A DNA stretch of 64,000 bases from an uncultured Gemmatimonadaceae bacterium (GTDB taxonomy: Bacteria > Gemmatimonadota > Gemmatimonadetes > Gemmatimonadales > Gemmatimonadaceae), in the NCBI GenBank assembly GCA_963790305.1, contig CAWBOC010000009.1, forward strand, positions 320,001 through 384,000, in the 5' to 3' direction. The notes under the pieces were generated by a model. It had not been told where the DNA came from. It did not search any database and saw only the letters and a program-made list of their open reading frames with translations. The position numbers and the translations under genes are program-made. This document shows, piece by piece, positions 1 through 64,000 of this stretch (position 1 is the first letter of the stretch; each line of letters opens with the position of its first letter).

Positions 1-2177
1 TCCGACGAGATCCCACGCAGCTGACGGTGGATCGACGGCAGCGGAATGCCGGACCGCAGCGCCAGCGAGATCAGGCGTCCCATCGCCTCGGCATCCGCCA
101 TCGCCGCGCCGCCAGCCTTGCCTAACGTGATGAACACCTCGAACGGCTGCCCGCGGTCGTCCTCGGTGATGTTCACGAACATGGTGCCGAGCGGGGTCTC
201 CTTGCGGATGGTGGTCCCGCGCAGCTTGTCGGGACGTGCCCGCTTCGCGCGGCGCTGGAGGTTTTCGGCCTCCACCTCGAAGAGCTGCTTGCGCAGCCGC
301 TCGATCTCATGGTGCAGTTCCGCCGTGGTGCCCTCGAGCTCCCCAATGCGACGCTTGTCCGACGTCGCCTGCTCGCGAGTCTGCTTCGCCTGCTCGGTGG
401 CGCCTGTCGAGAGCACCTGATTGTCACGCGACCCGTCACGGTACACGGTGACGCCCTTGCACCGCAGCTCGAAGGCGAGCTCGTAGATGGTGCGAACGTC
501 CTCGACCGCCGCGGTGTGCGCGAAGTTCGTCGTCTTCGAGATCGCCGAGTCGCAGTGGCGCTGGAAGGCGGCCTGCATGCGGATGTGCCATTCCGGGGCG
601 ATCTCGTTCGCGGTCGTGAAGACGCGCTGCCACTTCACGGGGACCTCGGGGAACTTGATCGTCCCCTGCTTCGCGATGCGCTCCATCAGCTCATCGGAGT
701 ACCATCCCTCGCGCTTGGCGATCGCCACGAAATCCTCGTTGACGTCGGGCATGAGGACGCCAGCCTGGTTCCGCATGAACGCCACGGCAAAGAGCGGCTC
801 GAGACCCGAGGAGCAGCCCGCGATGATCGAGATCGTCCCCGTCGGCGCAACCGTGGTGACGTTGCAGTTGCGGATCATCTTCATCGGACGGATGCGCTGC
901 CCACGCGCATCCTTCGCCGCCGTCTCCTCCGGCCCCCAAATGGACCGGGCCCAGTCGGAGAACGGGCCGCGCTCCACCGCCAGCCGCTCGCTTTCGCGCT
1001 TCGCCTCGACGTCGACGAACTCCATCACCGTCCGGCCGAACTCGACGCCCTCTTCGCTGTCGTAGGGGATGCCGAGCCGCACGAGCGCATCGGCGAAGCC
1101 CATCACGCCCAGTCCGATGCGACGGATGCGCTTGGCGAGCGTGTCGATCTCGACCAGCGGGTACTTGTTGACGTCGATGATGTTGTCGAGGAAGTGCGTG
1201 CTGAGGTGGATGTCGCGCTTGAACGCGTCCCAGTCCATCTGCCCGTCGCGCACGTAGTAGCCGACGTTGATGGAGCCGAGGTTGCAGACATCGTAGGCGA
1301 GCAGCGGCTGCTCCCCGCAGGGATTGGTCGCCTCGTACGAGCCTAACGTCGGCACCGGGTTGTGCCGGTTGGCTTCATCGATGAAGAACACACCCGGCTC
1401 GCCGGTGCGCCACGCGCCCTCGATCATCTTGTCCCAGACCATGTTCGCGTCGAGTCGCCCCGCTTCCTTGCCGCTGTGCGGATCGATCAGCGAATACTCG
1501 GTGCGCTCCTTGACCGCCCGCATGAACGCGTCGGTGATCGCGACCGAGATGTTGAAGTTCGTGATCTGGGTGAGGTCTTCCTTGCAGGTGATGAACTCGA
1601 GGATGTCGGGATGATCGACCCGGAGAATGCCCATGTTCGCGCCGCGGCGCGTGCCCCCCTGCTTCACCGCCTCGGTGGAGGCGTCATACAGCTTCATGAA
1701 CGACACGGGGCCGCTGGCGACACCAGTCGTCGAGCGCACCATGCTTCCCTTGGGGCGCAGTCGCGAGAACGAGAATCCGGTACCCCCGCCCGACTGGTGG
1801 ATGAGCGCCATCGCCTTCAACGTGTCGTAGATGCCGTCATGCCCGTTCGAGAGAGAATCGTTGACGGGCAGCACGAAGCACGCGGAAAGCTGGCCTAACG
1901 GGCGGCCCGCGTTCATGAGCGTCGGCGAGTTGGGCTCGAACCGGCGCTCCGTCATCAGCCGATAGAACTCCTCGGCCACCGTCTCGACCGCGCCATCACT
2001 TGCGCCGTATCGTCTATCCGCCTCCGCCACGACCGTTGCCACGCGCCAGAAGAGCTCCTCCGGCGATTCGGTCGGCTTTCCGCGCTCATCCTTGACCAGG
2101 TAGCGCTTCTGAAGGACGGTGCGCGCGTTCTGGCTGAGCGCACCGGCGGGGATGGGCGGCTTGGACGACAGGGACAT
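1..2177 (-). CDS. nrdJ: Adenosylcobalamin-dependent (class II) ribonucleotide reductase, 3' end outside the window
   Basis: Hand translation from ATG 2177 (absent from the ORF track because it has no stop in the window): PNSPTLMNAG, QLSACFVL, KQGGTRRGANM, TNPCGEQPL, CNLGSIN, TTVAPTGTISII, DSAISKTTN, KGVTVYRDGSR, then a C-terminal TSCPD-like region. Confidence 0.95.
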   Translation of the reverse strand, partial: MSLSSKPPIPAGALSQNARTVLQKRYLVKDERGKPTESPEELFWRVATVVAEADRRYGASDGAVETVAEEFYRLMTERRFEPNSPTLMNAGRPLGQLSACFVLPVNDSLSNGHDGIYDTLKAMALIHQSGGGTGFSFSRLRPKGSMVRSTTGVASGPVSFMKLYDASTEAVKQGGTRRGANMGILRVDHPDILEFITCKEDLTQITNFNISVAITDAFMRAVKERTEYSLIDPHSGKEAGRLDANMVWDKMIEGAWRTGEPGVFFIDEANRHNPVPTLGSYEATNPCGEQPLLAYDVCNLGSINVGYYVRDGQMDWDAFKRDIHLSTHFLDNIIDVNKYPLVEIDTLAKRIRRIGLGVMGFADALVRLGIPYDSEEGVEFGRTVMEFVDVEAKRESERLAVERGPFSDWARSIWGPEETAAKDARGQRIRPMKMIRNCNVTTVAPTGTISIIAGCSSGLEPLFAVAFMRNQAGVLMPDVNEDFVAIAKREGWYSDELMERIAKQGTIKFPEVPVKWQRVFTTANEIAPEWHIRMQAAFQRHCDSAISKTTNFAHTAAVEDVRTIYELAFELRCKGVTVYRDGSRDNQVLSTGATEQAKQTREQATSDKRRIGELEGTTAELHHEIERLRKQLFEVEAENLQRRAKRARPDKLRGTTIRKETPLGTMFVNITEDDRGQPFEVFITLGKAGGAAMADAEAMGRLISLALRSGIPLPSIHRQLRGISS

Positions 2178-2674
2178 TGACTGCGCTCCCAGGTGAGTGT
2201 CCTACAAGCTACGCGGACGTGGGGATCTTGGAAGACCAGCGATCCCGCGCGGGAACTGCGTGGGCGCGGAGGATACCCGGGTTCGTGTTTCCGCGCAAGC
2301 GTTTTGTAAACGACGTACACGTAATGAGTTGAACTATCAACATCACGAATCGGTTCCTGGTAGTGCCTTTTCCACGCGCAAGACCGACGACGTAACCGGC
2401 GTCATATGTGACCTGCGTCCACATTGCCGTGGTCCCGCCAGGCGCGAGCCGCCGGTCTGCGATCCTGATCTCGCCCAAGAGCTTGCACTTCCCCGATCGC
2501 GCCGCGAGCTCGCCGGCGCCACCGTTTGTCTCGAGGCCGAAGCGCCTCGCGACGTCGTCGCCAGCGCGTGCGCCTTGCCTCGAAACACGTGCATGCGACG
2601 GACCATTGGGGCCCATAAGCGGCGGCGACGTCGAGCATGGTGCAACCGAGCAACTTGCGCTGGATCCGGAAATA

Positions 2675-2700
2675 CGTTAGTACTTACGTAACTGCTAACG
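2675..2700. promoter_or_regulatory. Imperfect 26-bp palindrome, candidate MarR operator
   Basis: CGTTAGTACTTACGTAACTGCTAACG matches its reverse complement at 22 of 26 positions, is AT-rich, and ends 9 bp before the GTG start of the MarR-fusion gene. Confidence 0.6.
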
Positions 2701-2709
2701 GAGTTTCCT

Positions 2710-4191: not shown

Positions 4192-4278
4192 AGGCGCTAA
4201 AGGCGCTAAGGGCGCGGAACCGCTCGCCTCTAGCGCGTCTAGCGCCTCTAGCGCCTCTAGCGCCTCTAGCGCCTCTAG
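4181..4278. repeat. Inverted pair of tandem 9-mer arrays between convergent genes (probable terminator-like hairpin)
   Basis: (AAAGGCGCT)x3-4, a short spacer, then (GCGCCTCTA)x5-6; both flanking stop codons lie inside repeat units. Confidence 0.85.
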
Positions 4279-5924
4279 GGTTCCGGCTCCGCGCGCTCCG
4301 CGACCGTCGACGGCGCCTGCGCACGGGTCCGTGCCAGATACGCCGCGCTCAGATTCGCGTACGCCCTCGGCACATCGGGATACTCCATCAGCGCCAGCTC
4401 GAGGATCGCGATCGCGCGGTCATACTCGCGGCGCTCGAGAAAGTGCATCGCCGCCGAGTCGAGGGAGAGGCGCGCATCGGCATAAGCGTGGGTGGAGTCT
4501 TCGCGGAAGGCGGCGAGTCGCTCGCGCGCGGCCGACGTGTCGCCCGCGCTGATCGCCTGACGAATCTCATCCGAGAGACGCGGGCGGGCAACGAATCCGA
4601 GCGCGGTCGTCAGGATGGGATCCTCGTTGCGCACGTAGTCGCTGAAGGAGAGGGCCGCCGCGACATCGGGCGCTGTCCACTGGCGCTGGTCGCTGGGAAG
4701 CCACGCCTGCCAGTAGATCGTGGCGGCGCGCACGGTGATTCCGCTGTTCGGCAGCGAGATGCGCCGTGAATCGCCGTAGTGGTTCCCCTTCGAGGCGGAC
4801 GGCTCGCCGACGAAGGTGACGTCGGCGTACTTCTGCAGGTCGTCGACGAGGAACTGGGCCGCCGACCACGTGCTCCGTCCCGTCAGCACGAGCAGCTTGC
4901 CACGCTCGTTGACGTTAGGCCGTTTGAGAATACCACTCACCAGCGGGCGCAGGAGCACACCGTTGCCGCCGCGATTGAGGCGCAGGTCGAGCACGAGGCG
5001 GTCGGCGTGCACACTGTCGATCGCCGATAGCAGCCGCTGCGTGAACTCGGCGAAACTCTCCGACGGTCCATTCCGCACCTGGTTGATCTGCGCGTACACC
5101 GTCTTCGATTCGGGGAGCACCGTAAACCACCAGAGCACCTTTTCCGGATCGCGGCTGATCCAGAGGGGCTCGGGCGCCGATGCACGGTCACGCGCATCGA
5201 CCCAACCCGGCTTGCGACGCCAGCTCACGTCCGCGTCGGCCGGCATCAGATCGACGGGGCCGACGGGACGCAACCAGACCGAGCGCGTGCTGCCGCCAAC
5301 CTCGAGCTCGAACAGAACGCTATCGGGGCTCGGTGCCAGCCCGGCGGCGTGCAGGACCTCGGGGATGGCGAGCAGATGTGGCGCAAAGAATCTCACGCCC
5401 ATCTCGTTGTCGCGTCCGATGTATGGACGAACGCGACCATAGGCCTCGTCGACGGTCGCATCGCCAATGCGAAGCACGCGCGCTCCGGCGAGGTCGGCGT
5501 GGATGCGGTGCGCCGCACGCACGTAGAGTCCGTCGCGAAACAGGTACAGCGCGACAGGGAGCGCGCGAAAGCCGATCGCGCCGTCTCGGGTCGGGTAGAT
5601 GTTGGTGTGACCGTCGCCGCCGAGGGCGACAATGCGCGCCATCTCGAGGATGATCTCGTGGCGCGCGAGCGTCGGGATGCGCGCGTGCAGCGCTTTCGCG
5701 GCGCTGTCGAACGTCTCCGCGCTCGTGGTGTGATAGAGATTTCGGTGTTGTCGTGGCAGCTCGTCCATCATCATCCGGAGATCTTCTCGCCATTGCTCTG
5801 GAGTGAGCGTGTAGCGGGGAGCGACTGTCTGCGAGAAGACCGGGGGCGCCAGGAGGAGCGCGCTGATGATGGCGACGATGCAGTACCCTGCCCGTAGGGC
5901 ACTGCCGCCAGCACGACGAGTCAT
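4275..5924 (-). CDS. Secreted S41-like peptidase with C-terminal TPR
   Basis: Signal peptide; DGHT; LVLDLRLNRGGNG; TGRSTWSAA; FVGEPSASKGNHYGD; TPR-like YDRAIAILELALMEYPDVPRAYANL. Confidence 0.75.
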   Translation of the reverse strand: MTRRAGGSALRAGYCIVAIISALLLAPPVFSQTVAPRYTLTPEQWREDLRMMMDELPRQHRNLYHTTSAETFDSAAKALHARIPTLARHEIILEMARIVALGGDGHTNIYPTRDGAIGFRALPVALYLFRDGLYVRAAHRIHADLAGARVLRIGDATVDEAYGRVRPYIGRDNEMGVRFFAPHLLAIPEVLHAAGLAPSPDSVLFELEVGGSTRSVWLRPVGPVDLMPADADVSWRRKPGWVDARDRASAPEPLWISRDPEKVLWWFTVLPESKTVYAQINQVRNGPSESFAEFTQRLLSAIDSVHADRLVLDLRLNRGGNGVLLRPLVSGILKRPNVNERGKLLVLTGRSTWSAAQFLVDDLQKYADVTFVGEPSASKGNHYGDSRRISLPNSGITVRAATIYWQAWLPSDQRQWTAPDVAAALSFSDYVRNEDPILTTALGFVARPRLSDEIRQAISAGDTSAARERLAAFREDSTHAYADARLSLDSAAMHFLERREYDRAIAILELALMEYPDVPRAYANLSAAYLARTRAQAPSTVAERAEPEP

Positions 5925-6511: not shown

Positions 6512-6550
6512 CTCAATCCGCAGGTTGGAGGCTTGGTGCGCGGTGAGCCT

Positions 6551-6656
6551 AACTGCATCACCACGGAGGCACAGAGGGCACAGAGGACGGCCACCTGCAA
6601 CGGCCGTTGCAGGTGGCCGTCCTCTGTGCCCTCTGTGCCTCCGTGGTGATGCAGTT
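6551..6656. repeat. 106-bp perfect palindrome containing 9-mer-like units
   Basis: The 53-bp left arm AACTGCATCACCACGGAGGCACAGAGGGCACAGAGGACGGCCACCTGCAACGG is followed directly by its exact reverse complement. Confidence 0.95.
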
Positions 6657-14819: not shown

Positions 14820-16268
14820 CTAGTTCGTGAGAAAGCCCTCCGGCCCCCTCGCCTCCTCGACGGCCGCGTCCCACTCCGGCGCTTCGCCTGGCTTGTTGAG
14901 TCGGAGTGAGTCCAGCAGCCGCCGAGCCAGTGCAGAGGGCGCATCGAGGATCAGGAGCAGCGCGAGATCATCGCGGTAGGCGGCGAAGCGCGCCGTCGCA
15001 CCGATGGCTCGGACCAGACGCCGCGACTCGCGCAGCCACGCGACGACACGCGGAGCGTCACTCGCCGATATGCGCGGACTCAACAGGACCGACGTCACGC
15101 GTCGCCCCGCCGCGGCAAGCACGCGATGCTGCTCGATGCTCTCCGCGACCCGCGGGGGCAAGGCGATCGCCGTCATCGCGTGCACTCCCTTGGTTAGGCG
15201 ATCCACCCGCAGGCGCTCGAGGCGGCTCGCGACCCGGGCGCGAAGCTCCAGGGGAATGAGCGGCTTGGCCAGCGTCTCATCGACCCCGGCGTCGTAGGCC
15301 GCCAGCGACGTAGCGCTGTCGAGGTTCTCCCCGAGCAACAGCACCGGAAGATCCCGATAGGCGGGCATGCCACGCAGGAGCCGAGTGAAGGCGATCGCGT
15401 CGAAGGACGGGAGTCGCGCCTCGAACAGCAGGACGACCGGCTGCTCGCGCTCGAGCGTCTCGAAGAGCTGAAGGGGTGACTCGATCGTGACGACGCGAAG
15501 CTCCTGACCGAGCGCATAACGCGCGATCTCGAGAATCGAAGGATCGTCGTCGAGGAGCAGGATCGTCGGACGGAGCCAGGTGGTGGCAAGGAGAAGCCGG
15601 TCCGCGCGATCGAACAGTGCGTCCACATCGCCCGGGCCATCGGGGCCTTCATCGACGGCGAGCGTGGGGAGCCAGCGCTCCGGCCCCGACCGCGCGACCC
15701 GAAGCGCACGTTCTCGCGACATCACCACGAGGTGCGGGATCCGGTCGCGGGTGGGCGGGCTCGTCGCTTCGCCATCCATGGTCTCGAGGACGTAGCCCCG
15801 CCTCGACGCTTCCGCCGCCAATGCGCTCTGCGTGCGTTCCCCCAGAGAGACCAACAGCATTCGACGCCGAGGCGCTGCGGTCAGCGCGGGCAATCGGTCT
15901 GCCTCGACGGGATTCTGGAACGCGAGACGAAGCGCGCTTCCGAAATGACTGATGATCGTCGCGCGACTATCGAGCTCGAGCTTGGGATCCACGATCCAGC
16001 CCGCCACCCGCTCCTCGAGTTTCGTCGCGAGCGTGCTCGCATCGAGGAATCCGTAGCTTCCCGCCGTTCCCTTGACTCGATGGAGCTCGCGCCTGAGCGC
16101 CTCGAGCGCGCGCGGCGCGGCGGGCGACGCCGTCAGCTGGGTCGCGAGCCGCTCGAACGCCGCGACGATCGGCCCGGAGGACGCGCGAAAGTGCTCGCGC
16201 AGTGCCGCGAGCGCGTGACCCACATCCGAGGTCGTTCCGCCGTTGGTGCCGATGCTTGTACTCGTCAT
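14820..16268 (-). CDS. Hpt domain plus receiver-like domain(s) protein
   Basis: LRRELHRVKGTAGSYGF (Hpt); ILLLDDDPSIL...AGVDETLAKP (receiver); C-terminal region possibly a degenerate GGDEF. Confidence 0.75.
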   Translation of the reverse strand: MTSTSIGTNGGTTSDVGHALAALREHFRASSGPIVAAFERLATQLTASPAAPRALEALRRELHRVKGTAGSYGFLDASTLATKLEERVAGWIVDPKLELDSRATIISHFGSALRLAFQNPVEADRLPALTAAPRRRMLLVSLGERTQSALAAEASRRGYVLETMDGEATSPPTRDRIPHLVVMSRERALRVARSGPERWLPTLAVDEGPDGPGDVDALFDRADRLLLATTWLRPTILLLDDDPSILEIARYALGQELRVVTIESPLQLFETLEREQPVVLLFEARLPSFDAIAFTRLLRGMPAYRDLPVLLLGENLDSATSLAAYDAGVDETLAKPLIPLELRARVASRLERLRVDRLTKGVHAMTAIALPPRVAESIEQHRVLAAAGRRVTSVLLSPRISASDAPRVVAWLRESRRLVRAIGATARFAAYRDDLALLLILDAPSALARRLLDSLRLNKPGEAPEWDAAVEEARGPEGFLTN

Positions 16269-16788: not shown

Positions 16789-18006
16789 ATGACGACGCCC
16801 GAATCTCCGCGCGCGGCTGCGCCGGTCTCCCTGCGCACGAAGCTGCTGTGGGTCGCCGCCTTTTACTTCGCATCGGGCTTCCCCTTCGGCATCACGACGG
16901 AGCTGCTGCCGGTCTATTACCGCCAGCGCGGCGTCAGTCTCACCGACATTGGGCTGCTGAGCGTCATCGCACTCCCGTGGACGTTCAAGTTCCTCTGGGC
17001 CCCGCTCGTCGATCGCATCGGGACATACAAGCGGTGGCTGCTTGGCGTGCAGATCGGGCTCGCGGGAACAATGCTCGCGCTCCTGCTGGCCGATCCGGCG
17101 CGCGCGATGCCGCTGTTGTGGGTCGTGCTGATGGCCATGGCAACGCTCTCGGCCACGCAGGACATCGTCGTCGACGCATACACGATCCGCCTGCTCGACA
17201 CGCGGGAGTACGGGGCGGCGAACGGGGTGCGCGTCACCTCCTATCGAGTGGCGATGCTGGTCGCTGCCGGGGTGTTGCTCACCGCCGCGGGCCGCATGGG
17301 ATGGCCGACGATCTTCATGCTCGCGGCGGGGATCATGCTGATCCTGACCGCGATCTCCTTCACGATTCCGAGCAGCAATGTGCCGCGAGCTGCTGCGCAC
17401 GGGGGTCTCCGCGATCTCGTCGAGCCATTCCGCGAGCTGCTGACCCTCCCTGCCGCGATCGCCGTCCTCATCTTCGTGCTGACGTTCAAGCTGGGCGACA
17501 TATCGCTCATCCCGATGACGAAGCCGTTCTGGGTCGATCGTGGCTTTTCGACCGAGAGCATCGGGGCCGCGAGCACACTCGGGATCATCGCGGCGATCGC
17601 GGGAGCGCTCCTAGGGGGCGCGCTGACGACACGGTGGGGAATCTTCACCGCACTCTGGAGCCTCGGCCTCGTGCAGGCCCTCTCCAACCTCGGCTACTGG
17701 GCGGCGTCGCAGCTGCCCGCCGAGCAGAGCGTCCTCTACGGGACGATCCTGCTGGAGCAGGTCACGTACGGGATGGGCACCGCCGCTTTCCTTTCCTTCC
17801 TCATGTCGCTGTGCTCGAAGCGATACGCGGCGACGCAATACGCGCTGCTGTCGGCGCTCTTTCGTGTTGGCGGGCTCATCGCCGGAGCGATCTCCGGCGC
17901 GATCACCGAGGACGTGGGCTACGGGACGTACTTTTTCATCACGTTCCTGCTCGCGTTGCCGGCGTTCTCGCTGCTTCCCTGGGTGCGTCGGACGGTCGCT
18001 CGTTAG
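16789..18006 (+). CDS. ampG: AmpG-family muropeptide MFS permease
   Basis: YFASGFP, LPWTFKFLWAPLVD, SATQDIVVDAY, ATQYALLS; about 12 TM helices; next to nagZ/anmK/murQ. Confidence 0.85.
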   Translation: MTTPESPRAAAPVSLRTKLLWVAAFYFASGFPFGITTELLPVYYRQRGVSLTDIGLLSVIALPWTFKFLWAPLVDRIGTYKRWLLGVQIGLAGTMLALLLADPARAMPLLWVVLMAMATLSATQDIVVDAYTIRLLDTREYGAANGVRVTSYRVAMLVAAGVLLTAAGRMGWPTIFMLAAGIMLILTAISFTIPSSNVPRAAAHGGLRDLVEPFRELLTLPAAIAVLIFVLTFKLGDISLIPMTKPFWVDRGFSTESIGAASTLGIIAAIAGALLGGALTTRWGIFTALWSLGLVQALSNLGYWAASQLPAEQSVLYGTILLEQVTYGMGTAAFLSFLMSLCSKRYAATQYALLSALFRVGGLIAGAISGAITEDVGYGTYFFITFLLALPAFSLLPWVRRTVAR

Positions 18007-18045
18007 GCTTTCCAGTCGAGCGCGCCCGTGTACAGCGGAACTCGG

Positions 18046-19509
18046 TCAACGCGCCTTGAGAAGCCACCGCGCCGCCGCCTGCTGCATGACCGTCTCCCCG
18101 CCCCACGCACTCGCGACGTGCTTGGGCTTCTTGAGCTCGGTCGCCAGCCGCGGATGCGAGAACTGCATGACGACTGCCTCGGGCGCCTTGTCGATGACCT
18201 TGTCGACGGCTTTCCGCGCTTCGGGCGAGTAGCCTGGGCGTCCCTTCCAGCTGCGAACGTCGCCGAAGAGCGCGATGACGACGGACGCACGCCCGTCGCC
18301 ACTCACCTTGTCGACGCGCTTCACCTCGGCCCCCGCCAGCGACAACGTCTGAAAGAATGGATCTCGCGACGGCGCGGGGTATGGGCCGCCAAGGTCATCG
18401 TCGACGACGACCACCTCGACCGGCGACGTCACCCGCGGCGGGGCGCCGCGTACCACGTGCATCACGCGGTCAGCGAGCGTCGAGCCCCAGGCGACATCGG
18501 CCGCTGACGCGCGGCGGTACTCGTTGGGCGGGGACGCCCACTGCGCCCACTTCTGACGCCGCCGCAACGAGTGCTGTACGCGCTCGCGATCGAGCGTGCC
18601 GTTCTCCACCGCCTTCTCGATGGCGTGCGCCACCGCCGCGAGATCCTTGGGGTACAGCAGCACATCGCAGCCGGCATCGATCGCCCGGATGGCGGCTTCG
18701 CCCTCGGTGCGCCCCTCGAGGACGCCGTCCATGATGAACGCATCCGTGACAATGAGTCCTTCGAACTTCATCTGCTGGCGCAGCAGCCAGCGCAGGATCT
18801 CTCGGGACAGCGTCGCGGGCATCCCGCTCGGATCGAGTGCGGGAAAGGCGACGTGCGCGGTCATCACCGACGCGACCCCGGCTTCGATCGCCGCGCGGAA
18901 GGGCAAGAGATCGTTGTCGAGCAGATCCTGCCTCGACGCGTTCACGACCGGCATCGTCATGTGCGAGTCGACCGTGGTTCGCCCATGCCCCGGGAAATGC
19001 TTCGCGCACGCGAGCACTCCCTCCGCCTGGCAGGCGTCGATCCACTCGCTCGCGAGCTTCGCCACGAGCCGGGGGTTGCTCCCTAACGAGCGCGTGCCAA
19101 TGATCGGATTGGTCGGCTCAATGTCGAGGTCGCACACCGGTGCGTAGTCCCAGTTCACGCCCATCGTACGAGCCTCACGGGCGGTCAGCCGTGCGGCGCG
19201 ACGGACCGCGTCGGTGTCCCCGAGCGACGCGATGGCCGCGAGCGGCGGCAACCCCGTGGCGCCGGAGATCTGCTGCCCGGCACCGCGCTCGAGGTCTGCC
19301 CCGATGAGCAAGGGCACTCGGGAGCGCTGGCGGAGCTCCTTCGTCAGGGAGCGCACCGCATCTTCGACCCCGCCGAACAGAATGAATCCGCCGACGCCGA
19401 GCTGCAGCCCCTTCTCGATGAGCGGCCGCTCCTTCTCCCATCCAACGGCCGTGTCCCAGCGAAGCGCGGGGAGGAGCAGCTGCGCGACGCCGTTCACGCG
19501 GGACTCCAT
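18046..19509 (-). CDS. nagZ: GH3 beta-N-acetylhexosaminidase
   Basis: GADLERG, APVCD, IGTRSLG, KHFPGHGRTTVDSH, VMTAHV, IVTD. Confidence 0.88.
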   Translation of the reverse strand: MESRVNGVAQLLLPALRWDTAVGWEKERPLIEKGLQLGVGGFILFGGVEDAVRSLTKELRQRSRVPLLIGADLERGAGQQISGATGLPPLAAIASLGDTDAVRRAARLTAREARTMGVNWDYAPVCDLDIEPTNPIIGTRSLGSNPRLVAKLASEWIDACQAEGVLACAKHFPGHGRTTVDSHMTMPVVNASRQDLLDNDLLPFRAAIEAGVASVMTAHVAFPALDPSGMPATLSREILRWLLRQQMKFEGLIVTDAFIMDGVLEGRTEGEAAIRAIDAGCDVLLYPKDLAAVAHAIEKAVENGTLDRERVQHSLRRRQKWAQWASPPNEYRRASAADVAWGSTLADRVMHVVRGAPPRVTSPVEVVVVDDDLGGPYPAPSRDPFFQTLSLAGAEVKRVDKVSGDGRASVVIALFGDVRSWKGRPGYSPEARKAVDKVIDKAPEAVVMQFSHPRLATELKKPKHVASAWGGETVMQQAAARWLLKAR

Positions 19510-22392: not shown

Positions 22393-24144
22393 ATGCGCTT
22401 CTTCGGATTCCTGGAGCATCGAATGACTGCTGGACGGCGGGTTGGTCTTGCCCTCTTGCTCATCACGGTGGCCACATGCAGGCCGCCCTGGAGCCGTTCG
22501 AGCGGCCTCTTTCCCGCGGAATGGCGTTTCAGCTCGGGGCGCACCGCCGCGTATGCGCCGAGCGCGATGGTCTCCAGCAACGACTCGCTGGCGAGCCTGG
22601 CCGGGGTGGAGATTCTGCGCCGGGGCGGCAACGCGGTAGACGCCGCGGTCGCGGTCGGATTCGCGCTGGCGGTGACGTATCCCGAGGCCGGCAACCTCGG
22701 CGGCGGTGGATATATGGTCATCCGAATGGCCGACGGCCGCACCGCCGCGCTCGACTATCGCGAGCGTGCGCCGCGGGGCGCCACGCGCGACATGTATTCG
22801 CAGACCTACGCCAGCGTTCCCAACGCGAGCCTGGTCGGTCATCTCGCGTCCGGCGTTCCTGGCGCGGTGGCGGGAATGGTCGAGGCGCACGCGAAATACG
22901 GCATCCTCCCGCTCGTCGATGTGCTTGCTCCGGCGATTCGCCTTGCCGACTCCGGGTTCACGGTCGACTCGGCGCTGGCGCGGTCGCTGGAGAATGCACG
23001 TGAGCTCATTGCGGCCTACGCGGGCGGTGCGCTCTTCATGCCTAACGGCGTTCCGCTGCCGCGAGGAACCCGCCTGGCGCAACCAGACCTCGCCAACACG
23101 CTTCGGCGCATCGCCGAGCGCGGGGCGCCAGGCTTCTACGAGGGGGAGACGGCGCGCCTGCTGGCCGAGGAGATGCGTCGCGGCGGTGGTCTGATCACCG
23201 AAGAAGATCTGCGCGACTATCGCCCGGCATGGAGGGCCGCCCTCGAAGGCACATATCGGGGATACCGGCTCATCGGAATGCCGCCGTCCTCGTCGGGCGG
23301 CGTGACGATGATGGAGACGCTCAACATTCTCGAGACATTCCCCGACCTGCCCCCGTTCGGAAGCGCCGCGTACACGCACGTGCTCACCGAGGCGTTTCGT
23401 CGAGCCTTCATCGACCGCAACACAAAGCTCGGCGATCCCGATTTCGTCAGCGTTCCCGTCGTGCGCCTGACGAGCGACTCGTACGCCCGTGAGCTCGCCG
23501 CCACGATCGATCCGGCCCGCGCATCCGTCACGGTGGCGTTCGACAGCGCGGCCCGGGAGAGCGACCACACCACGCACTACTCGGTGGTGGACGCGGCCGG
23601 CAACGCGGTCGCAACGACGACGACGATCAACGAGCTGTACGGCTCCGGGGTGTACATTCCCGGTGCGGGCTTCTTCATGAACAACGAGATGGATGACTTC
23701 GCCACGCGCCCTGGCGAGCCCAATCTCTTTGGCCTGGTGCAGGGGGAGACGAACGCCATCGCGCCAGGCAAGCGCATGCTGAGCGCAATGTCTCCGACGA
23801 TCGTCCTCGACACGGCGGGGGCGGTAGTTCTCGTCCTGGGCGGACGCGGTGGTCCGCGCATCATCTCCAGCACGCTGCAGGTGGTCGTAAACGTGATCGA
23901 TCACGGGATGAGCCTCGCCGACGCCCTGGCGGCGCCGCGCATCCACCATCAGGCGTGGCCGGATACGCTACGGTACGAGCAGGAGGGCCTCACGGCGGCA
24001 GTCGTCGATTCGCTCCGCGCAATGGGCCACGGGGTGTCCGCTGGACGTGCGAGCGGATTGGTGAAGGCGATCATGCGTGCGCCAGGCGGAGGATGGCACG
24101 GAGCGTACGATCCTCGGTCGTCTGGGGGCGCGGTCGGATACTGA
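22393..24144 (+). CDS. ggt: Gamma-glutamyltranspeptidase
   Basis: GGNAVDAAVA, GNLGGGG, GVPGAVAG, PPSSSGG, autoprocessing site HTTHYSVVD, NNEMDDF, RMLSAMSPTIV, PRIHHQ. Confidence 0.95.
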   Translation: MRFFGFLEHRMTAGRRVGLALLLITVATCRPPWSRSSGLFPAEWRFSSGRTAAYAPSAMVSSNDSLASLAGVEILRRGGNAVDAAVAVGFALAVTYPEAGNLGGGGYMVIRMADGRTAALDYRERAPRGATRDMYSQTYASVPNASLVGHLASGVPGAVAGMVEAHAKYGILPLVDVLAPAIRLADSGFTVDSALARSLENARELIAAYAGGALFMPNGVPLPRGTRLAQPDLANTLRRIAERGAPGFYEGETARLLAEEMRRGGGLITEEDLRDYRPAWRAALEGTYRGYRLIGMPPSSSGGVTMMETLNILETFPDLPPFGSAAYTHVLTEAFRRAFIDRNTKLGDPDFVSVPVVRLTSDSYARELAATIDPARASVTVAFDSAARESDHTTHYSVVDAAGNAVATTTTINELYGSGVYIPGAGFFMNNEMDDFATRPGEPNLFGLVQGETNAIAPGKRMLSAMSPTIVLDTAGAVVLVLGGRGGPRIISSTLQVVVNVIDHGMSLADALAAPRIHHQAWPDTLRYEQEGLTAAVVDSLRAMGHGVSAGRASGLVKAIMRAPGGGWHGAYDPRSSGGAVGY

Positions 24145-27906: not shown

Positions 27907-28292
27907 CGCCGGACACGGCCCACGTACTCGTCGTTGAAGACAACGCGCTCGTGACCAGTGCGATGCGCATTCTGCTCGAGGATGCCGCGTTTCGAGTGAG
28001 CACGGCCGCCAGCCTGGCTGAGGCGCACGCGCTCTGCCTGAAGGATCCGCCGGCCGCGATACTCCTCGATCTCCGTCTCCCGGACGGCGACGGGCTGTCT
28101 CTGCTCAAGCGACTCCGGGCAGACGGAATCGTCCCGGGCGTCGTCGTGGCGCTCACCGGGCGAGACGAGCCCGACATTCGCGCACGCTGCCTCCGGGCGG
28201 GGTGCCTCGACGTATTGCTGAAGCCGGTGGACGTCCGCTCGCTCGCGCCGCGGCTCAGGTCGTGGTTGGCAGCGAGCGCGGGCGCGTCCTAA
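27903..28292 (+). CDS. Single-domain response regulator
   Basis: VLVVEDN, ILLDLRLPDGDG, VALTG, LLKPV; GTGA overlap with the kinase. Confidence 0.9.
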   Translation: MTPDTAHVLVVEDNALVTSAMRILLEDAAFRVSTAASLAEAHALCLKDPPAAILLDLRLPDGDGLSLLKRLRADGIVPGVVVALTGRDEPDIRARCLRAGCLDVLLKPVDVRSLAPRLRSWLAASAGAS

Positions 28293-28685: not shown

Positions 28686-28780
28686 GCTACTGTCGTATAA
28701 GGAGTTATGGCACATCGATGAGCGGCGCGAACCCTTCAGTGCCCTGTCGTTCAACGCGCTGTTGCGAACGTTAGGCAACG

Positions 28781-39142: not shown

Positions 39143-40176
39143 TTCCGCCACAGGAGCAGGAAGAGCAGCGCACCGCCGATGGCGAGCTGCAGCCCGAGCA
39201 TCAACCAGAAGCCTAACGGGTTGTCGGACAATGGAATGTGCCGAAAGTTCATTCCCCACATGCCGCTGACCACGACGAACGGGACGCTGAGGGTCGCGAT
39301 CACCGAAAGGCCCTTGGTCACCACGCCCAGGCGATTGGAGACCTGGGTGAGGTACGCCTCCATCGTACCGCCGAGGAGGTCCCGCTGCGTCTCGAGCCCA
39401 TCGTTGATGCGGAGCACGTGATCGTACACGTCGCGGAAGTAGATCTGCGTCTCGTGCGACAGCAGGGCGTTGGGTCGGTTCGTGAGCAGGTTGAATACCT
39501 CGCGCTGCGGAAAGAGGTGTCGTCGCAATGAGAGAATCAGTCGCTTCACCTGGAGGATGTCCTGCAGCGTGTCCCGCTGGAAGCTGACGAACACACGATC
39601 CTCGAATTGCTCGACCATTCCGTCGATGCGCTCGAGGAGCGGGAAGTACTCGTCGACGGCGGTATCCATGATCAGGTGCAAGAGCCGCTGCGCCCCGCGA
39701 CCGAGCACGTCGGGGCTCCGCTCGAGCACATCCGCGACGATCATGATGCTCCGCGCGCGCTCGCCGTGGACGGTGACGAGGTAGTTGGGCCCGAGGAAGA
39801 AATACAGGTTGAACGTCTCGAGATCGTACGGGTCGGGGGTGTCGTCCTCGAAGCAGACGCCACGCACGATCATGAAGAGGTATCCGTCGTACTCCTCGAG
39901 CTTGACGCGCGATTCCGGGTTGAGCGTGTCTTCGATCGAGAGAGGGTGGAATCCGAAGACCTTCTCGAGAATGGCCAGCTGGTGGCGGTTCCTCGAGTCG
40001 ACGTCCACCCACAGCTGTCCCGCGCCCGAGCGCACGACCTCGGCGAGCTCGCGCGGGCCCAGATCGCGGCGCATCGTGCCGTCGGCATCGCGCAGCCAGC
40101 TGCGCGGGACCTTCCCCTCGACTGCCGTCAGCGGCGCGACGCTCGCCACCGTCATGCCGACCTCGCGTGTGGCCAT
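39133..40176 (-). CDS. corA: CorA magnesium/cobalt transporter
   Basis: FGFHPLSIED, YFRDVYDH, GMWGMNF signature, two C-terminal TM helices. Confidence 0.93.
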   Translation of the reverse strand: MATREVGMTVASVAPLTAVEGKVPRSWLRDADGTMRRDLGPRELAEVVRSGAGQLWVDVDSRNRHQLAILEKVFGFHPLSIEDTLNPESRVKLEEYDGYLFMIVRGVCFEDDTPDPYDLETFNLYFFLGPNYLVTVHGERARSIMIVADVLERSPDVLGRGAQRLLHLIMDTAVDEYFPLLERIDGMVEQFEDRVFVSFQRDTLQDILQVKRLILSLRRHLFPQREVFNLLTNRPNALLSHETQIYFRDVYDHVLRINDGLETQRDLLGGTMEAYLTQVSNRLGVVTKGLSVIATLSVPFVVVSGMWGMNFRHIPLSDNPLGFWLMLGLQLAIGGALLFLLLWRKWL

Positions 40177-43978: not shown

Positions 43979-46021
43979 GACCGCATCGTGGTGTCGCTCC
44001 GCGGCGCCCCGGCGAGAACGGTACGCGCATTCGCGAGCGGCCGAGCAAGGTCGGTTCCCGCGCGCAGGGCCGCAATGACCTCGCCTAACGCCGCGGCACC
44101 GCCAGGCGATGCGACCAGCACATCAATGCGCAGGAGCATGAGGGAGTCGATCGCAGCCTGCCGGTCTTGAGCGATGAGCACAGCCGATTGCGCGAGCCGC
44201 TGAGCGGGGGGCATCCCTTCCTGCCGGGCAAGCGGTGCACGCGTCGCCGGAGGAAGCGAGTCCCGTTTGCCGGCCAGTCGGGCACGATTGACGTCCACCA
44301 CCACTGCCGCCGGTCGCCCCCGCAGATACACCCGCTCGGCCTGGCGAGCCCGCTCGATCGCGGCGAGCGCGGCGTACATGTGCGGCAGCGCGCGGCGCGG
44401 CGCTCCCACATTGAGCTCCGATCCGGCGGACCACATTGCGTTGTACGCCTCGAGCAACGGCCGATTGATCGCCACGACCGGGCTTTCCCCCTCGGCGAAG
44501 TCCAGGACCTCCCCCGCCCCGTGCTCGGTTGCCTCCTCGGCGGCGCGCAAGAGCTCCTCCGCGGTCATTTGCCCTCGGCGCTCCTCCTCTTCGTGCGAAT
44601 GCTCCGCCCCTTCCTCCCCCGTTAGGCGACTGAAGATGATCTCCCCGACCCGGCGGCGAAGCCGTGCCTGGTCGTCCCCAATCGCGCGTGATTCACGAAC
44701 GAGCGTGTCTCGCGGCAACCGCGGCTCGCGTTGGACCAACGCCTCGGTGAGGAGAATGAGCATTCGCTGGCTGATCGCCGCCGTGTCCCCTTCGGGTGGC
44801 GGGGCGCCTTCGACGGCGACCGAGTCGTACTCGCCGAGACGCGCGATGCGTATGACGCGCGTTTCCGATGCGCCGGTGCCGGCGTCACGCGCAGGGTTGC
44901 GATCGCGCGCGACCAACCGCATGTGAACGACATCGCCGGGCACGAGGCGAAGCGAGTCGATGACGACCGCCGTCTCGATCGTGGTCTGTCGGGCACCGTC
45001 GTGCGCGCGTCGCGCGAGTACGCCCGAGCGGAAGCGAAAGCTCTCGCCCTGTCCGCTGCTGACGATGTACTCGAGCCAGCTGGAGGCCAGCCCGAGCCCG
45101 TCACGCGCCTCGCCGCGGACGGCGATGCGGCCCGTTGGCGTGCGTAGAATGGTGTCGCGCGCGGGCGTCACCATCGCGACGACCGGCGCGGAGTCGGGCC
45201 GCGCGTCGAGAACGATCAGGCGATCGAACTCGCGGTCGCGCAATCGGAGCGCGCTCGATGTCGCCGGCATGGTGAGAACGAGCTGCCACCTCGCCCCACG
45301 CGCGGTCGCGGAGAGCTCGGCGTTCCCGAGCGCGGCAACAATGCCGTCGCCGTCGCCCCGACCCTCCAGCTCAATGCGACTCCCGACAAGCGCTTCAATG
45401 GTGTGCGGCTCGTCGACGCTCGTCGTTCCGAGACTCGTATACGCGGGAGGGGATGACGCGCGCGGCAAGGGGCGTCAGACGATTCGCCTGGCGCGCGAGC
45501 CCGATCGCCGGGCGATCGACGGCGTCTCCCGCCCGCGGATCTCGAACACGCGCAATGACCCCGCGCGGCAGCGCGAGAAGCATCCCCGCTGCCAGGGCAA
45601 ATGCGACCAGCGGCGGAATCGCGGCCCGTGACACCGCCCGCGGCAAGATCGCCGACTCCCACCGGTGACGGTCGATCTCGCGCTCGAGGAGCGGGGAGGC
45701 GCGCGCCGCCTCCGCCTCCAGCGACGTGACCAGGGCGTACTGAAGCGACGGCACTCGCTCCTCGATCCAGAGCGCGGTGGCCGCGAGTGAACGGACTCGT
45801 CGCGCTCGCCAGAGAAGCGCGAGCCCGATGACTGCTGCCGTTGTCACGGCGATTGGAATCGCCAGCTGTCGAAGCTCACGGGGCAGTCCTATGACCAGAT
45901 CGAGCAACGCGACGACGCCGATGACCGCCACGCCGGCAGCCGCTGCCCATAGGACGGCGCGGACGAGGACCGCCGCCATGAGGACGAAGCGGGTACGGCG
46001 CACACGCTGATGCGGCGTCAC
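43960..46021 (-). CDS. DUF4175-like membrane protein; frameshift near 45450
   Basis: ALWIEERVPSLQYALVT and TM helices in ORF 45395-46216 join ORF 43960-45468 at RVIP/PAYTSLG, at a G4 run. Confidence 0.7.
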
Positions 46022-47271: not shown

Positions 47272-48149
47272 GCCTCGCTCTCCCCTTCCCGCTCTCCGCG
47301 GGCAATGCGACGAACGACTCGATCGACGGGTTCATCCGTCACCGTCATTTCGTACTGCGCACCCGCCGCGCGCCACTCGCGCGCAAGCCACTCTCGCCAG
47401 TCCGCGAACTCGCGCATGTATGCACCGGCGGTCTCTGGCGTCAATGCGCGTTTGATCTCGACCGCCTCGGGATCGGTCGCGAGAATGGCGTCCGTCGATG
47501 GGGACAGCTCCTCCCGTGCCACGATGTGAATCGCGACCACCTCGCCGCCCTCACCGAGAAGCGCACGGGCAGGTCGGAGCAATGACGAGAGGTCACCAAG
47601 GAAGTCCGAGATCACCACCAGCCGACGCGCCGAGTGCGCTTCGTGCATGGCGGCTCCAAGATCGACGTGTCCCTGAGGGGTCGCCGCATCGAGCACGCGC
47701 GCGCAGTCAGTCACCACACCCCGCCGCGTGCGAGGCGCCGTCCTGATCGTTCCGTGCGCCGTCACCACCGCGACCGCCACCGGGTCACCGCTGGCGTGCG
47801 CGATGCTCGTGAGCCCGATCGCCAGCCGTCGCGCGTGGCTCCACTTGCCTAACGACCGCTCCGGGAACGCCATCGACGCGGATGCGTCGACGAGGAGCAG
47901 CGTCGAAAGCGTCGCCCGATCGCTGGTGATGCGGAGGTAGGCGCGGTTCGTCCGGGCGAGCAAGCGCCAGTCGAGCCGGCGCGGATCGTCGCCCTGCCGA
48001 TACGGGCGATACTCCGTGAACTCGGGCGAGACGCCGCGCAGCCGCGACCGATGCGTCCCACTGGTGCTGCTCCGCGCGACACGCCGTGCGGGCCATGTCA
48101 CCCCACGCAGGGCATCGAGCAGCTCACCGTAGCCCGCCGCCCCGCTCAT
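47268..48149 (-). CDS. DUF58 family protein
   Basis: GTHRSRLRG, EFTEYRPYRQGDDPRRLDWR, VDASASM, VVISDF. Confidence 0.92.
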   Translation of the reverse strand: MSGAAGYGELLDALRGVTWPARRVARSSTSGTHRSRLRGVSPEFTEYRPYRQGDDPRRLDWRLLARTNRAYLRITSDRATLSTLLLVDASASMAFPERSLGKWSHARRLAIGLTSIAHASGDPVAVAVVTAHGTIRTAPRTRRGVVTDCARVLDAATPQGHVDLGAAMHEAHSARRLVVISDFLGDLSSLLRPARALLGEGGEVVAIHIVAREELSPSTDAILATDPEAVEIKRALTPETAGAYMREFADWREWLAREWRAAGAQYEMTVTDEPVDRVVRRIARGEREGESEA

Positions 48150-60733: not shown

Positions 60734-60739
60734 GACACG

Positions 60740-61054
60740 TTAGGTGCGATCGCGACGACTGATCTCTTCGAGTCGGCGCTTGAGGTCTGCGTTCTCGCGC
60801 ATCACGCGATCGAGGTCGGCCTCCGTCCCCGCCGACAGCTCCCGAGGCCGCGCCGACGGCGCGGTGATGCCCACCGCCTCGGAAAAGCGCAGGTACGTAT
60901 CGATCGAGGCCACCACGATGCGTGCCTCGACGGTTACGAGGTCGATGCCGACCAGCGACACTCGAACCCATGCGTCGATCACGATGCCTTTGTCGAGGAC
61001 GCGATCGAGTACGTCAATGAGAGAACTGCCACCGGGGGCACGTTCGACTGCCAT
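60740..61054 (-). CDS. gvpA: Gas vesicle structural protein GvpA with C-terminal extension
   Basis: MAVER...[53 protein letters not shown]. Confidence 0.92.
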
Positions 61055-62477: not shown

Positions 62478-62694
62478 GCGGATGCGAGAGCCGTCCGCTG
62501 ACGCCGACGGTCCTCCTCTCCAGAGTCTCGAGTGCGCTGATGATCACCGACAGACTCACCGAGATGAGATCAATTCCGGCGATCGAGATGATCACGTCTC
62601 CGGTGATCACAACCCCTTTGTCGAGCACGTGACTGAGCAGATCGCTCAGCACGAGCGCGTCATCGTCGGCCGGCTCCAGTGGTGCGTCCGTCAC
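62437..62694 (-). CDS. GvpA/J-like minor gas vesicle protein (GvpS/GvpM-like)
   Basis: LSDLLSHVLDKGVVITGDVIISIAGIDL. Confidence 0.8.
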   Translation of the reverse strand: MTDAPLEPADDDALVLSDLLSHVLDKGVVITGDVIISIAGIDLISVSLSVIISALETLERRTVGVSGRLSHPLGDLPLLHPPRDT

Positions 62695-63503
62695 GGCGTA
62701 CCCGCATCCGCGGGCGCTCGCACGAAGTGATACGGCGGCCACGGCCCGGTAAAATCGAACCGGAAGCCCCGGGGCTCGTGCTCGCGAACGATCGCGGTCA
62801 GCGACTCCTGAAAGGGCGCCAGTGCACCGCGTCTCACCAGAAAGAATGCGTTGAGGATCGCGACACCCGGCGTGTCATCGCGCCCCTTTGCCGGGAGTGG
62901 CTCGCGCACCGCTTCGAGCGCCAGCGGCGCGAGCGCCTGAAACGCTTCGCGAGCGACGTCGGCGGCAACCCGCTTGAGCTCGGTGCGGCGCTCCGCCTCC
63001 AGCTTGCGCTGCAGCAGATAACGCTGGCCCGGACTCGCCTCCCGCGCCTGTCGCTCGAGTCCTTCGACGGTGGAACTCAGAGCGGCCATGTGCTGGCTGA
63101 GCACCTCATCGAGCCGAAAGACGCGAAGACCGTATTCCTCGCCAACGCCGACTCGCTCGAAAGTCGCGCGCAGCTCTGCCGCTCGCTCGCGGAGCATGTC
63201 CCGCACGCGCGACTCATCATGAAAAAGGGTGAAAATGGGAAGCGGGATGACCGGCCCCCGATCACCCGCCCACGTCACGACCGCATCGTGTGCTGAGGCG
63301 CGAGGAGCCACCCACCCCACCTCTTCCGTGAGGACCTCCACACGCTCGGGCGCATATGCGTTCGTATCGACACTCGAGACGAGCGCCGCCATGTCGCCCT
63401 CGATCACCACGCGCACTGCCGTGTCATCGATGCCCGCCGGTGCCCCCGATGCCTTGAGGGACGCTGGGGCCACGGCGTAGGCGTACAGAACGCGATCAGG
63501 CAA
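62691..63503 (-). CDS. GvpL/GvpF-family gas vesicle protein
   Basis: LYAYAV, AHDAVV, EEYGLRVF, SPGQRYL, ILNAFFLV, FTGPWPPYHFV. Confidence 0.88.
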   Translation of the reverse strand: MPDRVLYAYAVAPASLKASGAPAGIDDTAVRVVIEGDMAALVSSVDTNAYAPERVEVLTEEVGWVAPRASAHDAVVTWAGDRGPVIPLPIFTLFHDESRVRDMLRERAAELRATFERVGVGEEYGLRVFRLDEVLSQHMAALSSTVEGLERQAREASPGQRYLLQRKLEAERRTELKRVAADVAREAFQALAPLALEAVREPLPAKGRDDTPGVAILNAFFLVRRGALAPFQESLTAIVREHEPRGFRFDFTGPWPPYHFVRAPADAGTP

Positions 63504-64000
63504 CGGTGTCCTCGTCGATCGGTCGCCAGGCGGCACACCAGCTTCGAAGCGCAGGGGCGCCCTGCGGCGCCGGCAATGCCATGGGAGCTTCAAACTGACG
63601 CGGGGTGCCCTCCCCGGAAAGGGGAGAGAACGGGAAGGTGACGCGGTTCCAGATCAGCCCGCCGACGAACATCCCTCGCGCGCGACAGGCTTCGATCAGC
63701 CGGCGACTCTCATCTCGAACCACGGGCTCATCGTTTCCGACGACGAGAATCACCGCGCGCTCGGGGTTGCCCATGAGCTCCCGGAGCGCCCGCGTGCGCT
63801 TGGCGAAGTCGAGCATCTCCTTCGCCGCTTCTCCGAGGCCGGCCACCTCCTTGTATTCGAGCATGAGACGCATGAGACGGTGCGTCCACGAGAGCGCCAG
63901 CGCGGGCATCTCGAGCAGGCGGAGCAGGTGCCCGGTCGGCGCGGGATCGACGATCACGTATGCGTACCGGCCGTCAGCGAGAAGCTCGCCTAACGTGACC
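63496..64000 (-). CDS. ArsA/GET3-family ATPase, C-terminal part (5' end outside the window)
   Basis: VIVDPAPTGHLLRLLEMP (DTAPTGH switch II motif), GLIWNRV; reading frame open to the window edge. Confidence 0.8.
   Translation of the reverse strand, partial: VTLGELLADGRYAYVIVDPAPTGHLLRLLEMPALALSWTHRLMRLMLEYKEVAGLGEAAKEMLDFAKRTRALRELMGNPERAVILVVGNDEPVVRDESRRLIEACRARGMFVGGLIWNRVTFPFSPLSGEGTPRQFEAPMALPAPQGAPALRSWCAAWRPIDEDTVA

Follow-up and report, generated by a model that had tools for sequence, protein, structure and literature searches.

Self tags of the uptake type are, to our knowledge, established in only two proteobacterial families, and we know of no established example of a drive by transfer bias other than the DNA uptake sequence (DUS) of Neisseriaceae such as Neisseria, which is 10-12 bases long, and the uptake signal sequence (USS) of Pasteurellaceae such as Haemophilus, which has a 9-base core plus AT tracts. 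Other over-represented words include the highly iterated palindrome HIP1 of cyanobacteria, which is palindromic, overlaps methylase targets and, as far as we know, has no agreed function, as well as Chi and the FtsK-orienting polar and architecture-imparting sequences (KOPS/AIMS), which are strongly skewed to one replication strand. A further short word, the core of the attC recombination site of integrons, has the consensus GTTRRRY and is classically GTTAGGC. We hereby analyze a non-palindromic 8-mer, GCCTAACG, which is iterated in a stretch of 64,000 nucleotides (the window) from the genome of an uncultured Gemmatimonadaceae bacterium and in part of the order Gemmatimonadales. The word is real, independent of orientation and reading frame, evenly spaced and conserved, and it is switched on and off between lineages together with a shared variant; an uptake or transfer tag is the explanation to which we tentatively lean.

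The window corresponds to G000:C9:320001-384000, where G000 is an assembly of 4.31 Mb in 13 contigs with 66% G+C; its PriA locus has its closest named relatives in metagenome-assembled genomes of uncultured Gemmatimonadaceae. We call the 8-mer GCCTAACG the word and CCTAACG its 7-mer core, and the reverse complement reads CGTTAGGC. An earlier reading of the window, made from the sequence alone, had reported 17 exact copies of CCTAACG, 14 of them extending to GCCTAACG, and two GCCTAAC variants. All 17 are at the reported coordinates, 11 on the + and 6 on the - strand, the 14 extensions are correct and the variants are present at 6547 (+) and 15193 (-). In 100 dinucleotide shuffles of the window CCTAACG occurs 2.33 times on average (maximum 8) and GCCTAACG 0.90 times (maximum 4), and no shuffle reaches the 17 or the 14 copies observed.

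The whole G000 genome contains 855 copies of GCCTAACG (436 and 419 by strand) and 1229 of CCTAACG. The word with its reverse complement is the top 8-mer pair by z-score under both an order-1 and an order-3 Markov model, which expect 68 and 44 copies, respectively. Within 3150 crude gene calls, which cover 76% of the genome, the word occurs 605 times, against a mean of 38.5 after 30 shuffles of synonymous codons within genes (per-strand maxima 38 and 19) and 27 after shuffling codon order. The excess is carried by rare codons: 385 of the 977 TTA codons in called genes (39%) lie inside CG-TTA-GG and 123 of the 1658 CTA codons inside GC-CTA-ACG. Where the peptide permits it, the word is chosen in 13.6% of [SPTA]-L-G, 22% of P-N-[VADEG] and 1.7% of V-R contexts, as well as in 9.2% of L-T contexts whose preceding codon ends in C, and it also makes 43 of 435 TAA and 47 of 848 TAG stops. 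The sequence-only reading had staked its claim on an excess over a codon-aware model and on a concentration of TTA and CTA codons in this context, and both were found. This confirms that the word is a real, frame-independent signal at the DNA level.

The same reading had proposed a lineage-specific chromosomal signal, and the distribution of the word agrees with it. The 31 relatives that we compared fall into 12 word-rich genomes (345-6360 copies) and 19 word-poor ones (3-65 copies), the densest being G016, whose 5.1 Mb carry 6360 copies, or about one every 0.8 kb. In the phylum as a whole, 12 of the 301 Gemmatimonadota genomes surveyed reach 400 copies or more, and all 12 belong to two families of the order Gemmatimonadales: 9 of 70 genomes in family f1 and 3 of 125 in family f2 (all of genus g68), with none of 106 in the other ten families. 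These tallies, like those of the variant, IntI, ComEC, PilM and GspH given below, include the unpublished word-poor genomes G015, G079, G118 and G198, on which the conclusions do not depend. The cultured Gemmatirosa kalamazoonensis KBS708 is also word-rich: per 50 kb, its two 1-Mb plasmids have 36 and 20 copies.

The switch can operate within a single genus. In genus g38, G235 and G291 hold 3896 and 4141 copies and G287 only 66. Over 13 kb aligned at 73.6% identity, none of 19 sites of G235 is retained in G287, which mostly has ordinary codons at these places; typically CGTTAGGC faces CGCTCGGC, a difference of two bases (CTC vs TTA). Between the two rich species, at 83.4% identity, 16 of 23 sites are retained. 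The sequence-only reading had suggested that orthologues be examined for conservation, and the word sites of the window are indeed kept above the background of all 7-mers in five relatives, which are kin within the genus and not independent samples:

G008: 9/10 window sites kept; 0.31 of all 7-mers kept in the same alignment
G003: 6/9 window sites kept; 0.185 of all 7-mers kept
G001: 2/5 window sites kept; 0.21 of all 7-mers kept
G004: 3/4 window sites kept; 0.31 of all 7-mers kept
G006: 3/4 window sites kept; 0.20 of all 7-mers kept

Retention of copies between species is thus 2-4 times that of arbitrary 7-mers, and there is turnover, with both gains and losses seen between relatives.

A wider sample is offered by 80 Gemmatimonadaceae PriA loci, whose word density is bimodal: 23 have 0.2-1.5 copies/kb, 50 have none and 7 are in between. 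A PriA tree with 64 rows requires 5 changes of the rich label, 3 of them forced by well-supported branches, and the rich loci form four supported clades interleaved with poor ones; the tree is of a single gene and leaves out 17 loci with a short or broken match. Several copies stand at the same residue across rich clades, for example at residue 258 in 14 loci, which fits either common descent or repeated use of a few permissive places.

A second form of the word follows the first. The 12 of the 31 genomes that are rich in the word, and no others, are also enriched in the variant GCATAACG (112-708 copies vs 3-73 in the rest), whose ratio to GCCTAACG depends on the lineage, from 0.11 in G016 up to 0.9 in G030; 100 kb of plasmid DNA from Gemmatirosa contain no copy of it. 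When the 64 words of the form CGTTxyzC are compared in G000, only CGTTAGGC (21-fold) and CGTTATGC (253 copies, 6.9-fold) stand out. The best explanation is that the word is GCCTAACG plus a weaker accepted form GCATAACG, i.e. GCMTAACG. Their co-enrichment in the same genomes points to one shared reader and is most simply explained by a single homologous reader whose dialects differ by lineage.

In its anatomy the word shows neither frame nor direction. All four stop-free frames are used (123, 131, 292 and 59 copies), as are stop codons and spacers, and the density is about equal inside and outside called genes, with 225 of the 855 copies outside the calls. Beyond the 8 bases the information content is at background, with weak preferences at -2 and +7. 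The sequence-only reading had held that the strand distribution speaks against a strictly polar, KOPS-like role. This is borne out: relative to the sign of GC skew there are 310 vs 371 copies and no replication polarity in G000, and on contig C5 the strand counts are 68/62 before the skew switch and 82/76 after it, without skew. Relative to transcription, 264 sense and 366 antisense copies show no polarity beyond what the frames allow, and neighbouring copies are oriented at random (295, 302, 299 and 320).

Spacing, for which a test of regularity had also been suggested, is more even than random. In G000 only 15 neighbours are less than 150 bp apart, against 50.7 expected, with no excess of inverted orientation, and spacings of under 100 bp are 0.12-0.17 times as frequent as expected, those of 0.75-3 kb 1.15-1.2 times and those of more than 10 kb 0.8 times. 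In denser genomes (349 kb) the corresponding factors are 0.26-0.28 for spacings under 100 bp, 1.5 for those of 500-750 bp and 0.56 for those over 3 kb. The even spacing implies that one copy per segment suffices.

Some stretches of G000 are poor in the word. A 37-kb island of sugar-nucleotide and glycosyltransferase genes (63% G+C) is free of it, and the integron cassette array of the same genome has a single GTTAGGC in the 16 kb searched downstream of intI. In the sugar island we also observed a call of 1019 aa (G000:C13:219553-222612) that combines a weak TIR_2 match (E 1.7e-6) with a mannose-1-phosphate guanylyltransferase/isomerase, a fusion that may be an artefact of the open reading frame (ORF) call, and an AcrB-type transporter present as three consecutive ORFs (G000:C13:236564-239632; profile positions 2-511, 672-802 and 807-1020), which may be frameshifted.

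The letters of the word are those of the integron attC core, GTTAGGC, or inverse core, GCCTAAC, including the flanking C of the integrons of this order. The sequence-only reading had not recognized the word as a described motif. This holds for the genomic signal: a literature search gave no paper describing the word as such, nor any on an uptake sequence for Gemmatimon-, and among the papers listed the letters were found only in primer or oligonucleotide text. The identity with the attC core had been missed.

This identity is visible in the poor relatives, where the few copies cluster in one-strand runs with a spacing of 500-650 bp that are cassette arrays; in fact, such arrays hold most copies of the word in word-poor genomes, and their attC-like sites start with GCCTAAC and end with CGTTAGGC. 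As the R' end of attC-like sites, CGTTAGGC was found in poor genomes 12 times in G021, 4 of 5 times in G019, 5 times in G020 and twice each in G009, G026 and G011, and in rich genomes about 10 times in G298 and once each in G235 and G292, counts that are minima, as many sites escape the folding-based detector and most intI loci are located at the ends of contigs. An ungapped-stem detector had returned nothing real and was replaced by the folding-based one. In G298 the attC sites carry the 8-mer at both ends. We note the chromosomal cassette arrays G021:C95:1-24000, G019:C3, G020:C8 and G298:C2:832001-880000, in which each of the small same-strand ORFs has behind it an imperfect, attC-like palindrome of about 97-100 nt with the GCCTAAC start and CGTTAGGC end.

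The integron of G000 itself (G000:C9:694984-716600) lies about 311 kb to the right of the window, with intI at 694984-695919 (+) and an array of about 20 kb (C9:696.5-716.6 kb; 62% G+C) located 3' of intI on the same strand, which is an inverted layout. Its attC repeats of about 125-150 bp have the cores GCAGAAC...GTTCTGC or GCATAAC...GTTATGC, not GTTAGGC, and congeners also use GTTCTGC or GTTATGC. The secondary word CGTTATGC is an attC end in G000, G029 and G014. We considered that the integrons of rich genomes might avoid the GTTAGGC core, and rejected the idea because attC-like sites with GTTAGGC are present in the rich G298, G235, G292 and G030. The identity between the 8-mer and the attC end, which partly extends to the variant, is too exact to dismiss; IntI is not the maintainer of the copies.

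The sequence-only reading had offered a binding protein, a recombination signal or an uptake signal. The DNA-level signal stands, and among these options a bias in uptake or transfer fits best. We infer that the force holding the word against codon preference is a bias in uptake or transfer, so that the word would be a self tag like DUS or USS, a possibility to which we give our preference while rating it somewhat below even. A sequence-specific reader, present in some Gemmatimonadales lineages only, would keep the word in the genome. At some step of gene exchange between kin, DNA fragments bearing the word would be favoured, the simplest candidate step being uptake via type IV pilus and ComEC, although biased packaging or processing would be equivalent; homologous recombination would then spread the alleles carrying it, and the drive would override codon preference until mutation and the cost of rare codons offset it. 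An orientation-free, even and conserved word, dispensable in some lineages and with 10-20% rare-codon occupancy, is what a drive by transfer bias produces. Foreign DNA is poor in the word, which also supports such a bias. As for the machinery, ComEC and a PilM match are present in 31/31 relatives and G000 encodes major and minor pilins; ComEC and PilM are the same in rich and poor genomes and are therefore only a necessary condition.

Several observations weigh against an uptake or transfer tag. A literature search of titles and abstracts yields no report of natural transformation for any Gemmatimonadota. ComP_DUS (PF16732), the family of the minor pilin ComP that serves Neisseriaceae as receptor, has no match at E 0.01 or better in 11 of the 12 rich genomes, the exception being one weak match, below cut-off, in the rich G030 (E 0.0015). 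Minor pilins of the GspH/FimT type occur in rich and poor genomes alike (26/31) and were not found in the rich G012, and of 3 other rich genomes only 1 encodes a clear homologue of the PilX-like pilin of G000, which was compared in 5 genomes. None of the candidate readers or drivers followed over the 31 relatives (ComP_DUS, Vsr, C5-methyltransferase, ComEC, PilM, GspH/FimT and IntI) tracks the word. Close inverted pairs, as in the DUS of Neisseria, are absent. Three of the four annotated long word-free stretches hold ordinary housekeeping genes and not islands (29 kb on C3, 28.6 kb on C5 and 54 kb on C6 without the 8-mer), and only the cassette array and one sugar island agree with the idea that all such stretches are islands. 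An uptake model by itself also leaves unexplained why the word is the integron attC core. 

The size of the excess itself depends on the null: an order-4 Markov model trained on G000 gives an observed/expected ratio of only 2.6 for GCCTAACG, which is outside the top 14 8-mers under a maximal-order model trained on the same genome. From order 4 upwards, such models take up most of the excess because the sub-words of GCCTAACG are themselves inflated; a cleaner null is provided by the 19 related genomes of like composition with their 3-65 copies.

The word could instead be the recognition site of a chromosomal protein under direct selection, either a self mark that a scanning repair or defence enzyme would require at intervals of a few kilobases or the site of a nucleoid protein, which we regard as unlikely, if worth serious attention. 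Conservation above background fits it, a scanning enzyme would favour a spacing in which very short and very long gaps are both deficient, the on/off pattern with a shared variant implies a specific protein, and the two 1-Mb plasmids of Gemmatirosa carry the word at full density. Selection site by site would however have to beat the codon cost at thousands of places, and a 66-copy species beside congeners with about 4000 shows that the function is dispensable; close pairs are depleted and not clustered, which argues against cooperative nucleoid binding, and known self marks such as Chi are polar while the word is not. A methylation target, enriched through biased repair of the very-short-patch type or through restriction-modification as discussed for HIP1, was among the options of the sequence-only reading and is now very improbable. 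The patchy, mobile-looking distribution would suit it, and 5-methylcytosine is still formally possible in Gemmatirosa, since SMRT (single-molecule real-time) sequencing sees this base poorly. A C5-methyltransferase (PF00145) is however found in 0/12 rich and 2/19 poor genomes, and Vsr (PF03852) in 0/12 rich ones; the SMRT methylome of Gemmatirosa kalamazoonensis reports RGATCY, ATGCAC and CCAGN7TCA only (PMC3974934). These three N6-methyladenine (6mA) motifs are unrelated to the word, yet 56 copies of it occur in 100 kb of the plasmid DNA; the state of the sister species, moreover, differs at two bases, which one repair step cannot produce. We see hardly any chance for the word being a polar signal for replication or recombination (Chi, KOPS/AIMS), a repeat element dispersed over the genome or a side effect of protein or codon usage. 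The word is short, non-palindromic and over-represented like Chi and KOPS, but without polarity a role of either type is out. It has no flanks beyond its 8 bases and is thus not a repeat element: there is no similarity beyond the core of the kind expected for repetitive extragenic palindromes (REP) or miniature inverted-repeat transposable elements (MITE), and about three quarters of the copies are in called genes. It occurs in six reading contexts, in stops and in spacers, codon usage accounts for 38.5 of 605 copies, and relatives with the same proteins hold 3-65. Polarity, repeat and codon usage are thus already refuted.

The attC letters suggest two further explanations. In one, the reader of the word would be the integron integrase or a tyrosine recombinase related to it, and the copies would be docking sites, secondary insertion sites or a by-product of cassette traffic; we consider this distinctly doubtful. 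In its favour, CGTTAGGC is the attC-like R' end in the arrays of the order, CGTTATGC is also an attC end, an 8-mer would match one given site by chance with a probability of about 3 in 100,000, and integration of cassettes at attG sites in the genome is mentioned in PMC12614218. Against it, IntI is over cut-off in 22/31 relatives, including most poor ones, with 3 copies in the poor G287; it is absent from the rich G012, split over three reading frames in the rich G016 and not found in the rich G125 (99% complete). The attC sites of G000 carry GTTCTGC and GTTATGC, copies genome-wide lack attC-like flanks or a partner arm, and cutting or recombining at the site should deplete the word from genes, not enrich it. 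In the other explanation, slightly more doubtful again, the word would be an uptake or transfer tag spelled as the attC core, so that in word-reading Gemmatimonadales each cassette leaving an integron of the order would bear a ready-made address label. The host genome would be painted with the same label by molecular drive, and natural transformation and cassette capture would be coupled; in Vibrio, transformation is known to supply integrons with single-stranded cassettes (PMC12614218).

In the window, with genes named by Pfam and frames computed from the ORFs, the frame tally of the sequence-only reading is right: eight CCTAACG copies are read as xCG-TTA-GGx (121, 1342, 1894, 19082, 39212, 44084, 47848 and 63989), two as CTA-ACG (25629 and 44620) and three as CCT-AAC (4913, 23041 and 35310), three supply stop codons (18001, 28288 and 60738) and a single one is intergenic (28769). 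The copies and variants are as follows:

120..127, +: GCCTAACG, xCG-TTA-GGC on the - strand, class-II-type ribonucleotide reductase gene (3-2177, -)
1341..1348, +: GCCTAACG, xCG-TTA-GGC, ribonucleotide reductase gene (3-2177, -)
1893..1900, +: GCCTAACG, xCG-TTA-GGC, ribonucleotide reductase gene (3-2177, -)
4913..4920, -: GCCTAACG, sense CGG-CCT-AAC-GTC, S41 peptidase gene (4275-5924, -)
6547..6553, +: 7-mer variant GCCTAAC, without the final G
15193..15199, -: 7-mer variant GCCTAAC (GTTAGGC on +), without the final G
18001..18008, -: GCCTAACG, CGT-TAG on +, stop codon of a major facilitator superfamily (MFS) transporter gene (16789-18006, +)
19082..19088, +: CCTAACG (C at -1), TCG-TTA-GGG, GH3 (nagZ-like) gene (18046-19509, -)
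23040..23047, +: GCCTAACG, ATG-CCT-AAC-GGC, gamma-glutamyltranspeptidase gene (22381-24144, +)
25628..25635, +: GCCTAACG, CGC-CTA-ACG, ATP-binding cassette (ABC) transporter gene (25267-27063, +)
28288..28294, +: CCTAACG (T at -1), TAA of a response-regulator gene (27885-28292, +) and stop of a convergent ORF (28289-28654, -)
28769..28776, -: GCCTAACG, intergenic
35310..35317, -: GCCTAACG, ATG-CCT-AAC-GTC, priA (34252-36816, -)
39211..39218, +: GCCTAACG, CCG-TTA-GGC, corA (39133-40176, -)
44083..44090, +: GCCTAACG, GCG-TTA-GGC, 502-aa ORF without Pfam match (43960-45468, -)
44620..44627, -: GCCTAACG, CGC-CTA-ACG, the same 502-aa ORF (43960-45468, -)
47847..47854, +: GCCTAACG, TCG-TTA-GGC, DUF58 gene (47268-48200, -)
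60738..60744, -: CCTAACG, TAA stop of a gas-vesicle protein gene (60740-61054, -)
63988..63995, +: GCCTAACG, ACG-TTA-GGC, ArsA-like ORF (63496-63999, -, open at the window end)

Individual sites can be followed in relatives: that at 23040..23047 is retained in G001, G003 and G008 and is CCTAACG at the same place in G016, and that at 25628..25635 is GCCTGACG in G001.

Other elements were observed along the way. The gas-vesicle gene (Pfam Gas_vesicle; 60740-61054), in the genome of a soil Gemmatimonadaceae, is followed on the same strand by more small ORFs (61061-61402 and 61438-61785). At 24152-24265, between genes, an element of about 110 bp has matches on both strands, being palindromic, and is present in dozens of copies at 75-91% identity in the congeners G001, G003 and G008; it looks REP- or MITE-type. 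Another element of about 140 bp (41009-41155) has many copies at 92-98% identity in G004, G006 and G008, and as the genes around it are only 74-87% identical it may be a recently mobile small element common to several species. Further words are over-represented in G000, mostly in intergenic DNA: TTCCGCATT (384 copies, 273 outside gene calls), TCCGCATTC (520 copies), AGGAGTCAGG (260 copies, 241 outside gene calls) and a family around GCCTCTAGCGCC (about 156-190 copies).

An uptake or transfer tag, if this is what the word is, would be a signal of the uptake-tag kind in an abundant and little-studied soil phylum. The contrast of about 4000 vs 66 copies within one genus makes the reader gene findable by comparative genomics, and a cultured carrier, Gemmatirosa kalamazoonensis, is available for uptake, pull-down and knockout tests. 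Once found, the reader would reveal the way in which a word is put into a whole genome and removed from it again, as well as whether kin are the preferred partners in DNA exchange among soil Gemmatimonadales; the exact identity with the attC core may link two routes of gene exchange. New here are the census of the phylum, the on/off contrast within a genus, the co-enriched variant and the spacing law, as well as the exclusion of Vsr, Dcm and 6mA and the observation that the word matches attC cores of rich and poor genomes alike, the array of G000 being different.

Compared with the described systems, the Gemmatimonadales word resembles Chi and KOPS/AIMS in being a short, non-palindromic, over-represented chromosomal word of the sort read by a DNA-processing machine, but it is unskewed. 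With HIP1 (GCGATCGC) it shares the character of a hyper-abundant 8-mer within genes, in all frames, lineage-specific and conserved; unlike HIP1 it is non-palindromic, no cytosine methylase is found in the 12 rich genomes and it is not among the methylated motifs of Gemmatirosa. It has the same letters as attC, including the 5' C in the arrays of this order, where GTTATGC also occurs in attC sites, whereas its genome-wide copies are lone 8-mers in ordinary genes, without second arm or folded structure, and its abundance is independent of the presence of intI. From DUS and USS it differs in having 8 specified bases and no flanking tract, in being on or off between and within genera and not family-wide and in coinciding with an integron recombination core; from DUS also in the depletion of close pairs, where Neisseria has inverted pairs at terminators, and in the lack of a ComP-type receptor match in 11 of 12 rich genomes. 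In the rest it is like them: a short, non-palindromic word, equal on both strands and in all open frames, imposed against codon preference, retained at orthologous places with turnover, restricted to lineages with variant dialects and, in common with the USS, spaced more evenly than random.

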